Shown here piece by piece: positions 11,525-59,694 of a stretch of 64,000 bases of DNA. Position numbers and translations under genes: made by a program. The DNA is from Eledone cirrhosa (taxonomy: Eukaryota). The stretch covers positions 34,472,001 to 34,536,000 of the forward strand of contig OZ024751.1 of assembly GCA_964016885.1 (NCBI GenBank), given 5' to 3'. The notes under the pieces are model-generated. The model did no database searches, had not been told where the DNA came from, and saw only the letters and a list, made by a program, of their open reading frames with translations. How positions within the stretch are numbered: position 1 is the stretch's first letter; every line of letters starts with the position of its first letter.

Positions 11525-11658
11525 AAGTAGTAACACAACAGTTAGTTGACCATACGGAGAACAATTGTTTCACCTTGTGGATCTTCAGTCCGAGCTGAAG
11601 ATCCACAAGGTTAAACAATTGTTCTCGGTATGGTGAACTAACTGTTGTGTTGCTACTT
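11525..11658. repeat. Palindrome, 64-bp arms, 6-nt loop, abutting (TA)n
   Basis: Arms are reverse complements with 4 mismatches around cttcag-tccgag-ctgaag. Confidence 0.95.
11590..11628 (+). ncRNA. Minimal type I hammerhead motif with GAAA mutated to TAAA; a mirror copy on the minus strand (about 11555-11592) keeps GAAAC
   Basis: ccgag CTGAAGA tcc-acaa-ggt TAAAC aatt GTT ctcgg: 5-bp stem I, palindromic ACAATTGT stem III. Confidence 0.65.
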
Positions 11659-33194: not shown

Positions 33195-33478
33195 TATGTT
33201 GATTTAAAACTGCACTATCAACAAGTGTTTTTTAGCCTTCATATCATGTTCTCCTGTTTTATCTGATGAAAACACAAATATTATTGCTTGATGATGTATA
33301 TATATATATATGTTGATTTAAAACTGCACTATCAACAAGTGTTTTTTAGCCTTCATATCATGTTCTCCTGTTTTATCTGATGAAAACACAAATATTATTG
33401 CTTGATGATGTTTGTTTTTGAAATGCGCATAATAAAATATATGGAACTCCTTTAACCATCTTTTGATCTTATATTATA
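33195..33478 (+). mobile_element. Solo terminal fragment of the same PLE as a partial tandem (about 100-bp partial copy, (TA)n, about 170-bp copy)
   Basis: Near-identical to the reverse complement of 57290-57457. The first unit (33195-33297) breaks inside hammerhead stem II. Confidence 0.85.
33371..33437 (+). ncRNA. Type I hammerhead ribozyme (same family as 57327-57393)
   Basis: ttttat CTGATGA ... GAAAT gcgc ATA ataaaa. Confidence 0.85.
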
Positions 33479-40199: not shown

Positions 40200-40316
40200 T
40201 GTGTGTTGGTAAACACATATCTGTGTTGAGGGGGATGCCTTTGTAACTCAGTTTCCGAATGCAGGTTTCGACGTCTCATCAGACGTTGAAGTAACTCTGT
40301 AGATAGATACATAGAT

Positions 40317-41106: not shown

Positions 41107-41646
41107 TTTCATACATACATACACATACATGAATACATACATAAATACATACATATATATATATACATACATCTGATATACACAGAGACAAATATACATA
41201 CATACATGCACACACAGACATACATAAATACTTACGAATGAATGGTATATACAGAGACAAACATACATACACGTACATACACATTCAGAAATATATCTTA
41301 CAGGCAAACATACATACATAACACAAACTTTTTTACCTCCACCACCACAACAACAACCTCCACCGCCACTACAACCTCCACAACAGCCACCACCGCCACC
41401 ACAGCCACCACCTCCACCACCAACATCCTTAGGTAATTAGATAAGATTTTGTCTTCAGAATTCTAGCATGGGGAGGCCAAAGCTAAATCAAATTCTATCT
41501 CTTGTTCACCTAATCGAACTGACAAGTTATTCTCTTCTAAGTGACATCTAACTTACTGATCGATCACAGTTAATGTTCGATAATTTATTGTCAGACTTGC
41601 CAATATCTCTTGCGCTGCGTCTCAGTTCATGTATTGTCCTCGGGTG

Positions 41647-41677
<31 letters not shown>

Positions 41678-41694
41678 ATATGTGTGTATATATA

Positions 41695-42503
41695 AAGCAA
41701 CGACTCCGTTGGAGTGGTCACCTTGCCAGGATGAAGGATTCTAGAATACCAAAACAACTCTTTTATGGAGAGTTAGTTAAAGGAAAACGACCGTCACATA
41801 AACCAAAAAAGAGGTATAAGGATTCCTTGAAAGCCTCTCTGAAAGACGCTAACATCTCTGGTGATACATGGGAAAATATTGCTGCTGATCGTAATAAATG
41901 GAGAAAGACTGTATATGAAGGAAAAGTTGTCTTTGAGGTATCTCGAATCGCATACGAGAAAGTAAAGCGGGATGTGAGGAAGGGCATTTCCAGATGGCGA
42001 GGGTCCTCCTATGGTACTGACATGCAGCGTCTGTGCCAGACTCTGCCTAAGCAAAGCTGGACTCGAAAGTCATCTTCGCAGTCATAAAGTAAGACCAGTG
42101 GTTGACTACCAGGCTGCTGTTGGAGATGCTACTCATCATGCTTGCCAAGGATGTGGTAGAGAATGTAAATCAGCAGGAGGGCTCAAACGACATGCAAAAG
42201 TACATGAACTCCAACCACAGCCGGCTATTCCCAGTGAATGTTTTGGTTGCCGACTCTGTGCAAGACATTTTAGATCATTGGCTACGCTAAAAAGCCACAT
42301 TCGATCGCAGAGCTGTTAATTGCTATCGTGTGTGTGTGTGTGTGTATCGATATGTTTATGTGTGTGCGTGTGTGTGTATATATTTATATATGTATATTAT
42401 TATTGTTGTTGTTGTCGTTATTATTATTGTTGTTATTATTATTACTATTGTTATTAATATTTTTTTTCTCGTGCACTCGGTAACGAGGGGGCAGCCATCA
42501 TAT
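41695..42503 (+). mobile_element. 3' end of an RTE-clade LINE with C-terminal C2H2 zinc fingers
   Basis: RLRWSGHLARMKDSRIPKQLFYGEL..GKR...KPKKRYKDSLK...WENIAADRNKWR, then three CxxC...H motifs. An 11-bp deletion near 41987 shifts the frame. The 3' UTR ends ggcagccatcatat. Confidence 0.9.
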
Positions 42504-48165: not shown

Positions 48166-48775
48166 GTCAGGTCACCACTTGGTGCTACTGGTAACATGTA
48201 TCCCAGTACAACCTGTCTAATGGTCGGGTCGTTGGCGACTAAACTGGCAACCCCACCAAGGTTTCTTGGTGAGGAGGGTGACTTTGGACATCCTGCAGGA
48301 CTAAAAACAAAACCTGTCAAAGGGTAAAGGAGCTCTTAAGAGTCAATGGCCATCCAAAATCACCGGGAGAGATGACCCCTTAGCCTTTGTCAAGGCAGCA
48401 TTTTAGGAGAAGGAAAACTCTGATATAACACCTGCAACCCTGATGGTATCCAATGATGCTGACTTGTTCTTCTTTTTAGTAAATATCATCTTGGTTAAGA
48501 GAGTGGGACTGGCTTTGTGCAGTGCCTTTGCTCACTATAAAAGCTTCACGGCACAGGCATTGCTTTATATCTGCAGATCTCTCTGCACTTGTCGTCACAT
48601 GGTACCATGGGCCCAGCACTATGTGTCAATAATTGTCACAAGTGTAGTGTTTGTACCAGAGTTTTTAAGTTGCTGGCTGGACTAAAAAGTCCCACTCGTT
48701 CAGCGCATCGGTAGGGGTTCTCCTACATGGATATAAAGTAGTGGCCATACTCGAAAACGAGTTGGCAGCCACCAT
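48166..48775 (+). mobile_element. Probable short non-autonomous RTE-related element
   Basis: GC-richer island between microsatellites. It has an RTE-5'UTR-like motif (taggagaaggaaaactctga) and a 3' end ggcagccaccatat that matches the RTE ends in this window. Confidence 0.5.
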
Positions 48776-49168
48776 ATATATATGTATGTATCTGTATGTA
48801 TATATATATATATATATGTGTATATATGTATGTATATATAGATATATATGCATGTATATATGTATGTATATGTATGTATATATGTATGTATATATGTATA
48901 TATATGTATGTATATATGTATATATATCTATGTATGTATGTATGTATGTATATATATATATATATATTTCTTTAGGTTTGTTGGTTCACCACTGGATAGA
49001 ACTGGTCATTCCGCATGGTCAATCCTGGTGTAATATTGTGAAGAGTACTCAACGCAGTGCAGTTCACCCATCTTCGTTTGTGTAGTTGGTGGTGCGAATA
49101 CGGAGTTAATTATAAATAAAATAAAATAACAGGAGGCTGGACTGGTGTAAATCCTTGAAAGGTTTATT

Positions 49169-49226
49169 ATACTATGATCATTTCAATGACCGGGTTCCAT
49201 ATGAATCCGGTGATATCATCAGGTAT
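49169..49226 (-). ncRNA. Type I hammerhead ribozyme in the left arm of the same palindrome
   Basis: Reverse complement of 49417-49474. Confidence 0.8.
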
Positions 49227-49416
49227 TGGAATATAACAAAGGAATATGTAAAAAACCATGGGTTCGAAAAATCAGAGACAGAGACAAAGAGGACAACTGA
49301 CCAACTAGCTGCTCGGCCAGTCGCCCTCAAAGTGTCAGTTGGTCAGTCGTCCTCTTTGTCTCTGTCTCTGATTTTCCGGACCCATGGTTTTTTACATATT
49401 CCTTCGTTATATTCCA

Positions 49417-49474
49417 ATACCTGATGATATCACCGGATTCATATGGAACCCGGTCATTGAAATGATCATAGTAT
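49417..49474 (+). ncRNA. Type I hammerhead ribozyme in the right arm of a palindrome
   Basis: atac CTGATGA tatc-accgg...ccggt-catt GAAAT gatc ATA gtat, then aataaa. Stem III palindrome ATGATCAT; stem II base is imperfect. Confidence 0.8.
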
Positions 49475-49594
49475 AATAAACCTTTCAAGGATTTACACCA
49501 GTCCAGCCTCCTGTTATTTTATTTTATTTATATATATCTATATATATAAAATAAAATAAATAAATCAAATGTTTAAAATTTGGCTTCGTTTATT

Positions 49595-49651
49595 ACTGCT
49601 ATATATATATTTCGGTGACAGCCATCTTTGGCTGTGACCTCTTCAGGCAGT
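49595..49651 (-). ncRNA. Type I hammerhead ribozyme, canonical
   Basis: actgc CTGAAGA ggtcacagcc aaagat ggctgtcacc GAAAT atatat ATA gcagt, then aataaa. Stem I is 5 bp; stem II pairs 9/10 with a G-C closing pair. Confidence 0.9.
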
Positions 49652-50596
49652 CCGAATTAGTGTGGTAAAGACGAGTACACATGTTGTTGAGGTGTATAAC
49701 TTTGTCAATACTCTGATATGCCCAGTTCCTGGTTGGGTTGTTAATTCACTGAGGAACTGGAATCATATGAATTCAAACAAACGAATTTCCGCGTCAAAGG
49801 GCCTCTTCTCCTCTCATTGGTCAGTTGTTAGAACATTCCTCAGTCAAAAGTCTATAGAAATTCGTTCTGAGGCAAGCCAATCTGTAGTTGTTGTTCTTGT
49901 TATTGTTAGGTAGATCTGACCTCTATTCTTGTGTTGGTAGTGGTGTTATTGTTGGAGTCATCTAAAAAAAAATGTGATAAAGTGGTAGAAGGAATAAGAT
50001 GGTAAAGGAACAAAATAAAATAAAATATTCGAATAAAATGTGTGTGTGTTATATCCATCTCAATGTTATAAAGATTTGTAAGCTCAAACTTCCCATTGGT
50101 CAGTTTTGAGAGCATTCCTCAGTCCAAAGTCTATAGAAATTCTTTCTGGGGTGAGGCTCCCTGTAGTGTTTGTGTTTGGTATACCAACATATACTAAAAA
50201 AAAATATATATATATATATACAGTAAATTTAGTTGTAATCCATACGTAATATATATATATATCAATTATATTTTACGTTTTTCAATAAAATAGCTACATG
50301 AACTTTACCTCAGAACAATTATACCTCAAATTTAAACGATATATAAAATTATATATATCGATATTATCAATTGAGAAACTGGCAGTATTTTGTACATATA
50401 TACAGAACAATTAATATATAAGTTGAACTATTTACTTCAAGATGGTAACACTGCCTATAGAACCATGCTTCTGGAAATCGAAGAAAGTACGCAAGCTATC
50501 GATCGTAGTAGTTAGTATCAATTACCAATTATCGATTTTGGTAGTAAGAATTCTAAGATCAAGATTTCCTTCATCAGTAAGAGCAGTAAGAGTAGG

Positions 50597-56401: not shown

Positions 56402-57326
56402 ATATATATATAAATATATTTTTTTTTTATATATATATACAGTGAGAGAGGCAGAGAGAGGAGTGAGTGAGAAGAAATGAGAGACATAGACATATATTAA
56501 GAAATGTCTGATTCTTTGAACAAAATATCAATTTAATGAAAGTTAATGATTTGTGCCGCCACTCCTTTGAAGTTAAGATATAAAGTCGACAATATGTCAC
56601 GTGACGTTATAAATTCATTTGGAATTCAAAAGCAATAATTTTACATATAGTTTTGAATTGAATGTAACGTTTTTGGGATAGTCCAAATCAAGGAATCGTG
56701 GATTTCTCCATTTTTTAGGAGGGGTGTATGAATAATCTGGAAATTAATTTTGGAAATATTCGTTTTCCTTATTACTGCCATATCATTTGGTAACCGCCAT
56801 CTACAGACTGGTAACCATCACCTACAGAGCCTTAACAATATATCGGGAATGCAGGTCGAAGATATTTGCTTTTGTGGTGGTGATGGGTTGCAGGGCTACG
56901 GTGTTCACTGATATTGTTGTTTACCAGTCAATGCAGAGTGTTAAGGCAATTGCTGGTCTTATTTACACACACATGCATACACACATACATACAAAAACTA
57001 AACGGGTACAACGAAGTACTATGAGGAAATGTTTTTGTTTAACGTTTGATATGGTAGGAAAATTGTAACTTTTCGGACACTAGTCCATCATCAGAAGTTA
57101 GAATGAGAAGCTAGAGCTATAATAGAGATATAGAGACTAATAAGAAGGGGGAAAAACATTTGATAAAAATCAGGTGTATCCAGCCACCTGTATATATACA
57201 CAGTGCCATTTGTTCCTTCTGAATATATACAGGTATAACTTTATACACACACATATATATGTATATTTATATATATATATATATATATAATATAAGATCA
57301 AAAGATGGTTAAAGGAGTTCAATATA

Positions 57327-57393
57327 TTTTATTATGCGCATTTCAAAAACAAACATCATCAAACAATAATATTTGTGTTTTCATCAGATAAAA
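57327..57393 (-). ncRNA. Type I hammerhead ribozyme in the PLE terminal repeat
   Basis: ttttat-CTGATGA-[stem II hairpin]-GAAAT-gcgc-ATA-ataaaa: 6-bp stem I, intact core, palindromic stem III (ATGCGCAT), AUA cleavage triplet. Confidence 0.85.
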
Positions 57394-58640: not shown

Positions 58641-59447
58641 TTAACTGTATACTTTGTGAAAAGTTCTATGGAATTTATGCAGGCAGATGGAAAACAAATC
58701 CGAGCGTCTATTTATTATGGATTCTAGGTTAGAGATAATGGTAAATTTTTCATTTAGGCAGAGATTACAGATTTTAGATAGAGAACTGTTCAAGTACGAG
58801 GATGCAGAAGAAATCTTTTTCCAAAAGATGTTATATTTAATGTTTTTGTCTTTTAAGGACCATATGAGTTCTGAGAGAGCAGTGTTATTTCTTTTAAGTT
58901 TGTATTTGAAAGATGAATGATGATTATAGAGACGAGCTTTAAAAGAGGTGGAAGTGGAGCCAAAATAGGTGAAGGAGTTGGTGCTAGTTATAATTTTACA
59001 TTCATAAATTAAGTTTTTATCGAGGCAATGGTTGTTGAGAGGACATTTATTTTTAATGCGGCAGTTGCAATTAGAGAGATTATTAATGAGTGATCTAGTG
59101 TTATCTATAGAAGGAATTGGATTGGAGAAGTTGTTTGCGATAGGAATAATAGGAATAATAGTTTCTTGATTTAGAGTTGGATTATGAACATTTAGCGAAG
59201 TTGTGTTTGACGTTGCATTTGGGTTTACAGAAGTTAGCCTAGGGTTTACAATGACGTCAGGAGTACTATTATTGTTATTATGAGATTCAATATTGGAAGG
59301 AAGAGATTTAGTATTTAATATTTTGTTGTTGTGTTTAGAAATGATGTTGGAAATATTGGAGGATGTAGAATACGAAAATTTAATGGTGTGTTTGTTAAAT
59401 ATTTTACTATAGATATGTGAGGGAGGGAAGCATTTATTTAAGGCACT

Positions 59448-59450
<3 letters not shown>
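58641..59450 (-). CDS. C-terminal part of a Penelope-like element ORF (post-RT linker, CxC zinc knuckle, GIY-YIG endonuclease), 5'-truncated
   Basis: Manual translation gives a stop-free 810-nt frame: FSALNKCFPPSHIYSKIFNKHTIKFSYS...CNCRIKNKCPLNNHCLDKNLIYECKI...TYFGSTSTSFKARLYNHHSSFK...TALSELIWSLK...ICNLCLNEK...INRRSDLFSICLHK...VYS*. LIY/YFG is the GIY-YIG pair, followed by the catalytic R and Cys/His motifs. It has no start codon because it is cut by (TA)n at 59451. Confidence 0.9.
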
Positions 59451-59531
<81 letters not shown>

Positions 59532-59694
59532 AAATTAAGATAAATCAAAAATCAAAAATTAAGATAATCAAAAATTAAGATAAATCAAATGAATTTAATC
59601 TAAATCAAAATTATGGGTGTCATGCCAGAAAGACATGCGCCATATCACCCGCAAAATAAGGTCTAAGATTCTAACGAGTAGGTCCGAGCATTTT

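Follow-up and report, generated by a model that had tools for sequence, protein, structure and literature searches.

A hammerhead palindrome in the Eledone cirrhosa genome as a probable head-to-head insertion of a non-coding family linked to Penelope-like elements

Described systems and the present locus

Inverted, 5'-truncated copies with a tail on one side only are given as a standard structure of Penelope-like elements (PLEs) in two accounts (PMC8557442; PMC3846280), the first of which calls the origin of the tandem and inverted structures undefined. The endonuclease-bearing PLEs described there (PMC8557442, Fig. 2 legend; PMC3846280) form partial tandems and show an inverted 5'-truncated copy placed head to head, a one-ended tail, a hammerhead in the pLTR and a microsatellite target, and in all these respects they resemble the repeat that we refer to here as family 1. 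Family 1 differs from them in lacking an open reading frame and in having a tail of 143 nt, whereas theirs measure 30-40 nt; in addition, the pairing of a tailed with a tail-less end was counted for family 1 (32 of the 33 loci with two classified ends). In Schistosoma, dual minimal hammerheads on opposite strands, ~100-700 bp apart, were reported in 2014 and tied to truncated PLEs (PMC4209133). These pairs have in common with family 1 the opposite strands, the link to truncated PLEs and a palindromic helix III, whereas family 1 has a stem III of 2-3 bp, a longer stem II with U.U closure, and a source family and both ends that are mapped.

Animal non-LTR retrozymes (PMC7229834; bioRxiv 10.64898/2026.07.22.740005) are like family 1 non-coding, with one type I hammerhead per unit, tandem copies and a probable PLE-driven mobility, and the latter report argues that non-autonomous hammerhead repeats derive from PLEs. 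In contrast to the retrozymes, with units of 150-450 bp, family 1 has a unit of 2.07 kb and its copies are mostly truncated or inverted instead of multimeric, while the copy studied here, with one hammerhead per strand, cannot give a unit-length monomer. Family 1 therefore lacks the 150-450-bp tandem unit with same-strand hammerheads by which non-LTR retrozymes are recognized. PLEs of the Hydra clade are characterized (PMC8557442, section 11) by RWK and DKT motifs, a CxCX5C linker, CxxC and CxH, a single ORF with reverse transcriptase (RT) and C-terminal GIY-YIG, (TA)n insertion and a canonical hammerhead. The motifs, the hammerhead and the (TA)n insertion recur in the second family at our locus, family 2; the clade is described as shorter than 3 kb in that section, whereas the family-2 unit is longer (4.15 kb, L126), and the placement is by motifs. 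Family 1 has the end layout of family 2 and its tail motif, and encodes no protein to compare.

The locus lies in a window of 64,000 nt (the whole stretch of DNA that was analysed) in a microsatellite-rich genome of 3.0 Gb. Its palindrome is very probably a single head-to-head, 5'-truncated insertion of an abundant non-coding family that was likely mobilized by Hydra-clade PLEs, and the third hammerhead next to it the end of another, Hydra-clade copy that shares its (TA)n tract. That we are dealing with a PLE-type insertion plus a chance neighbour is almost certain. Inverted pLTRs and opposite-strand hammerhead pairs are already known, and the present genome has many of them in several families; what family 1 contributes is the strict pairing of ends, the existence of non-overlapping arms and a common tail helix.

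The palindrome and its two element families

The arms of the inverted repeat, at 49111-49306 (minus strand) and 49337-49532 (plus strand), match at 192 of 196 nt, with mismatches at 49238/49405, 49264/49379, 49267/49376 and 49295/49348, and are separated by a 30-nt spacer (49307-49336). Each arm carries a core of the form CTGATGA...GAAA-TGATCA-TA with a 4-bp stem I, a palindromic stem III and an AATAAA (at 49475-49480 in the right arm). The two type I hammerheads at 49169-49226 (minus) and 49417-49474 (plus) have core starts at 49222 and 49421 and predicted cuts after 49173 and 49470, respectively. Their stem II is closed by U.U and not by G-C, and this closure is fixed in the family-1 sample (137/137 and 138/139 arms, most of the loci having been picked for an exact core). 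A third hammerhead at 49595-49651 (minus; core start 49646) has a 5-bp stem I, a G-C closing pair and a predicted cut after 49600. The preliminary description had reported the 196-bp arms, a hammerhead core with AATAAA on each strand and the separate third hammerhead; alignment and the motif and pairing analysis agree with it in all coordinates, the U.U closure being an amendment. A strict hammerhead motif scan yielded five matches in the window and none in the reversed and complemented controls. Rfam returned 17 matches for 49000-50250, all to generic hairpin families below their gathering scores and none to a hammerhead family, and for the whole window mostly microsatellite noise among the 150 of 235 matches listed; the identification is thus by motif and pairing.

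The palindrome stands as delimited before (49111-49532), although the family-1 element does not end with it but continues 143 nt to the left, to 48968, on that side only. The whole insertion (48968-49532) consists of two head-to-head arms between (TA)n tracts; among contigs from four runs of unrecorded type, none bridges this locus. Its long arm (48968-49335, minus) corresponds to unit positions 1732-2100 and stops at a fixed end A, which includes the tail (48968-49110, minus), the 143 nt from end B to end A that are found in this arm alone. The start of the tail (49042-49110, minus) contains the motif ACUC-NNN...NNN-UY-GAGURCU, predicted to form a helix with a 2-nt bulge. The short arm (49337-49532, plus) corresponds to unit positions 1761-1956 and stops, without tail, at a fixed end B; the spacer is the extra 5' stretch of the long arm and part of a 15-bp hairpin of the template. 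A (TA)n tract at 49530-49547 separates family 1 from family 2, represented at 49548-50182 (minus) by the 5'-truncated 3' end of an autonomous Hydra-clade element that stops at its own end B, and of which the third hammerhead is the pLTR ribozyme. Some 20 nt at 50179-50200 (plus), read by eye, resemble the end of the family-2 tail (end A) before (TA)n resumes, and appear to be a short opposite arm of the family-2 insertion.

The exact 52-nt family-1 hammerhead occurs 516 times in the genome (reversed control: 0), and among the first 100 copies listed 12 pairs are divergent (152-2006 bp apart), 2 are in tandem and none is convergent. A search with the palindrome gave 2098 candidates, of which 40 were scored: 30 loci, including the window, are 400-460-bp palindromes and the remaining 10 match one arm plus spacer only. 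The architecture of the window is thus found in 29 further copies among these 40, and the genomic copies bear out what had been suggested as its simplest origin, an inverted PLE terminal repeat. In the 17 palindromes that we compared every centre is different, while one side always has the same tail followed by (TA)n. The 10 one-arm loci led to the 2.07-kb non-coding unit, which has one hammerhead, forms partial tandems and is often accompanied by an inverted arm; at the tandem junctions the end of the tail runs into the next unit (L036, L039 and most of 30 junction loci). The long arm of the window is 98.6% identical to non-palindromic copies that extend further into this unit, and the best palindromic copies are only 81-93% identical to the window palindrome.

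The family-1 unit has no ORF of more than 135 aa and no match to PLE proteins and is therefore considered non-autonomous. An antisense open frame of 135 aa across the hammerhead was rejected as a gene candidate: it has no Pfam match and a common subfamily has a 1-nt insertion within it. No autonomous partner carrying the family-1 pLTR was present in 30 loci, in which one unrelated PLE-like fragment was found, so that the tie to the Hydra clade rests on the shared end layout and tail motif. The unit also harbours a very common 180-bp repeat (unit positions 388-569 in L039 4497-6603), which has 10 matches in the window and is missing from some unit copies.

For family 2, a search with 49545-49960 gave 2663 candidates, the best 40 at 96-100% identity. 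Other copies encode a GIY-YIG-type domain upstream of the hammerhead, and in six long-frame copies the frames measure 700-894 aa. An 894-aa ORF of the family contains RWK, DKT, YRDD, CxCX5C, a GIY-YIG-type motif (VYG...YIG), CxxC and CxH, and the L121 protein has RWK, DKT, YRDD, CxCX5C, CxxC and CxH. Among the Atlas neighbours of the protein (0.95-0.98), some members bear HTH_animal and GIY-YIG, joined in one cluster by RVT_1. Pfam gave only sub-threshold GIY-YIG matches for C-terminal fragments (E 6e-4 and 1.4e-3) and no RT match for the whole ORF, and a PDB search with the ORF gave four chance matches (E 0.19 or worse). Judged by its motifs, canonical hammerhead and (TA)n insertion, family 2 is an autonomous Hydra-clade PLE; an assignment as Neptune-like was dropped, as the motifs fit Hydra. 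The long copies L121 and L125 have the same A+B layout as family 1. A 92-nt direct repeat (80% identity; 49812-49903 and 50091-50182) lies in the family-2 3' UTR and is seen in other copies too.

The two families are rarely neighbours. A clear family-2 hammerhead match was found in 3 of 85 family-1 loci, namely in the window, in L095 (directly beside family 1) and in L031 (2.8 kb away), and next to none of 16 other short palindromes. In 6 of 60 family-1 loci, a hammerhead of any other family is found on the same strand no more than 1 kb upstream. The presence of a neighbouring hammerhead is explained by the fact that both families target (TA)n. Between TA-rich tracts, a 608-bp repeat at 48166-48773 has copies of 95-97% identity in 11 others of the 85 loci; together with the two families it brings the number of elements lined up at one (TA)n landing site to three.

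Arm ends and the origin of the mirror image

The anatomy of the insertions was analysed in 60 consecutive exact-core loci of one contig (C1), a sample biased to young copies. Arms end at two fixed positions of the unit, A at ~2100 (with tail) and B at ~1953-1956 (without tail), and (TA)4 follows end A in 34 of 43 cases and end B in 43 of 49. Ends are found on both strands in 33 loci, and these combine A and B head to head in 32 cases, B and B in one, and A and A in none (binomial p 4e-9); 25 loci have a single classified end and two have none. The single-ended loci may mean that insertion with two ends is not obligatory, or that a second arm exists but is too short to be recognized. Both strands carry an intact core in 22 of the 60 loci, always in divergent orientation (22/22), at distances of 102-1866 bp, with eight pairs within 320 bp. 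Many junctions show an overlap of 1-6 nt or a short filler. The 5' ends of the arms cluster (43 of 106) at unit positions 1725-1815, around a predicted 15-bp hairpin, compared with 8 in the preceding 90 nt; the turn points of the window copy, 1732 and 1761, account for the size of its palindrome and for the spacer.

Both arms of a locus usually seem to come from one template lineage. Over 50 inverted arm pairs in 85 loci, divergence is 3.1% within a locus and 4.6% between loci, and lower within in 45 of the 50 pairs. Rare variants are common to both arms 23 times against 0.9 on permutation (8 of the 23 stem from the diverged locus L110), and the arms agree in the subfamily marker u1838 (u, unit position) in 48 of 48 loci, where 18 disagreements were expected. 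Other markers do disagree within loci, u1944 in 11 of 47 (16 expected) and u1780 in 6 of 24 (12 expected). The likeness of the arms could alternatively result from gene conversion. In five of the 32 A+B loci (L069, L071, L073, L078 and L114) the two arms have no sequence in common, which excludes copying of one arm from the other as their source at these loci, and in other loci, among them L079, the tail-less arm (u59-1956 in L079) greatly exceeds the tailed arm (u1793-2107) in length.

The tail motif, ACUC-NNN-(4 to 44 nt)-NNN-UY-GAGURCU, stands a few bases past end B in five hammerhead families of this genome: in 46 of 67 family-1 records (with at least 95 nt before (TA)n), in 12 of 15 family-2 records and in 3/3, 6/10 and 1/1 records of three further families, as compared with 6 of 5150 shuffled sequences. 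It is lacking in six other hammerhead clusters with long downstream sequence. The three inner pairs are kept in the four multi-copy families while both sides change (CGU/GCG or ACG, CGG/UCG, CAG/CUG, CAA/UUG), as counted by a motif-anchored script and not by an alignment-based covariation test; MAFFT left the motif out of register owing to the variable loop (4 to 44 nt). The conserved bulged helix is a lead only, since the motif was first noticed in the same data, the ACUC/GAGU pairs are invariant, and families 1 and 2 are able to form a rival local hairpin.

Taken together, the strict pairing of ends, the non-overlapping arms and the common tail helix favour priming on both sides of the break from two start sites on the RNA. 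The PLE protein, probably as a dimer, would cut both strands of a (TA)n target, and both DNA ends would be primed with the element RNA as template, the first at site A and the second at site B, 143 nt upstream. Both cDNAs would be extended toward the 5' end of the RNA, often halting close to a GC-rich hairpin that precedes the ribozyme by ~100 nt, and would then be joined head to head via a few bases of microhomology or filler. Since the hammerhead lies ~60 nt upstream of site B, it is present in each arm. We give this twin-priming scheme in its details somewhat better than even chances. Two primings would cover the non-overlapping arms as well as the long tail-less arm and would fit the in vitro behaviour of an Anolis PLE protein, which is reported (PMC11167929) to cut and extend both DNA strands and to use two internal start sites on the RNA, one at each limit of the tail. 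The wider rule, that in Hydra-clade PLEs a dimer primes both ends of one (TA)n cut at two fixed sites of the same RNA lineage, flanking the bulged helix, and that the cDNAs are joined head to head, is put forward more tentatively, at slightly less than even chances. If true, inverted pLTRs, one-sided tails and opposite-strand hammerhead pairs would all follow from it, and the tail helix would be a cis signal kept by non-coding passengers such as family 1. At the level of titles and abstracts, mostly of papers outside subscription journals, we found no strict A+B pairing and no tail helix; the motif may be present in the supplement of PMC8557442 or of PMC11167929. As a mechanistic by-product, the genome offers a candidate RNA signal for the second start site, together with Hydra-clade proteins whose frames are open.

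The counts of family 1, i.e. the 32 A+B pairs among 33, the non-overlapping arms and the shared variants, separate this scheme from other models. The second arm of the same family could have been made by self-priming, with a single cDNA or an antisense template folding back at a short palindrome and serving as its own template, as the palindromes at inverted junctions of rotifer Penelope elements have been read (PMC3846280). Such a fold-back accounts for the variants common to both arms and for turn points near the hairpin, and the window copy taken alone fits it; nevertheless, it is improbable, because folding back a single cDNA cannot yield arms without common sequence (the five loci above) or a tailed arm far shorter than its tail-less partner (L079), and it offers no reason why the second arm stops at the fixed site B. 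Far less probable still, and already largely refuted, is that the short palindrome is a mobile unit of its own, a MITE-like fold-back DNA transposon or a hairpin master RNA, with centres that differ via later deletion of the tip. Many copies do measure 400-460 bp, with similar centres and long terminal inverted repeats, but the spacing between the cores is continuous (102-1866 bp), the ends are asymmetric with a tail on one side, the long arm of the window is nearest to non-palindromic copies, and partial tandems of the 2.07-kb unit exist.

Folding of the palindrome and neighbouring elements

Viroid-like and HDV-like ambisense circles are rod-like with a ribozyme on each polarity, and imperfections of the rod leave each ribozyme able to refold. 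The rod in the window is, in contrast, a near-perfect genomic inverted repeat made at insertion. Folding, which is an equilibrium prediction throughout, gave pair probabilities of 0.000 for stems I, II and III of the ribozymes in transcripts of the whole region from both strands; by computation, the folding and cutting of both ribozymes within the rod that characterizes viroid-like RNAs is not predicted here. In the arm alone, the pair probability of stem II rises to ~0.8 and that of stem III is 0, and the active fold of the 49173 ribozyme alone has -4.0 vs -14.9 kcal/mol, while for the third hammerhead the ribozyme fold is at most 1.5 kcal/mol above the minimum. Transcription of either strand passes the antisense arm ahead of the ribozyme, and in a read-through transcript a 196-bp duplex would close before the ribozyme can fold. 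The ribozymes of the window copy are accordingly predicted to be silent passengers, and sequestration by the hairpin, which had been mentioned earlier as an alternative, is what folding predicts.

A viroid-like RNA circle from the palindrome is unlikely. Metazoan hammerheads of the arm type need a same-strand partner that extends helix III, and cut weakly even then (PMC4209133). The stem III palindromes of the two families do not cross-pair (+2.0 kcal/mol vs -7.2 and -5.6 kcal/mol for like pairs), so that the two ribozymes cannot form the dimer which this type needs. The proposal of a functional ambisense unit, in which cuts at 49600 and 49173 of a minus-strand transcript would free a 427-nt rod for ligation into a retrozyme- or viroid-like circle (~430 nt in the preliminary description), has hardly any probability left, for although the cut sites exist on paper, the fragment folds as a very stable rod (-270.6 kcal/mol, z -27.9), the third hammerhead is close to its minimum, and a U.U at the base of stem II still leaves 22% cleavage in an axolotl retrozyme and RtcB can circularize such ends (PMC7229834), the rod is the trivial product of any inverted repeat, in context the second ribozyme is predicted to pair completely with its antisense and alone it folds poorly, the stem III palindromes do not cross-pair, the junction of the circle would join stem I strands from different families, and family 2 adjoins none of the 16 other short palindromes. 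Searches that label ambisense-ribozyme rods viroid-like should take note of such insertions.

Several further hammerheads were seen. A second ambisense hammerhead palindrome, of another family and with a CTGAAGA core on both strands, lies at 11527-11655 in the window, with (TA)n at its left and a one-sided tail to ~11740. Two copies of a further hammerhead family, at 33263-33470 (plus; with a broken duplicate 114 bp upstream) and 57290-57390 (minus), stop at the end B of that family before (TA)n, and minimal hammerhead-like motifs with a short stem II are found at 40282 and 57094 (both minus). Opposite-strand hammerhead pairs of two more families occur in the flanks of family-1 loci (L091 1146/1290, L099 3871/3973 and L105 508/677). 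By eye, three families have a C.C mismatch at the fourth stem II position from the core (49421-49470, 49595-49651 and L096 1182), which is possibly a conserved tertiary contact.

An open frame of 297 aa at 58641-59534 (minus) in the window encodes the C-terminal endonuclease of another Hydra-like PLE, with 36% identity to the L121 protein. Two overlapping open frames at 41584-42319 (plus) resemble an RTE-type LINE end with C2H2 zinc fingers behind it.
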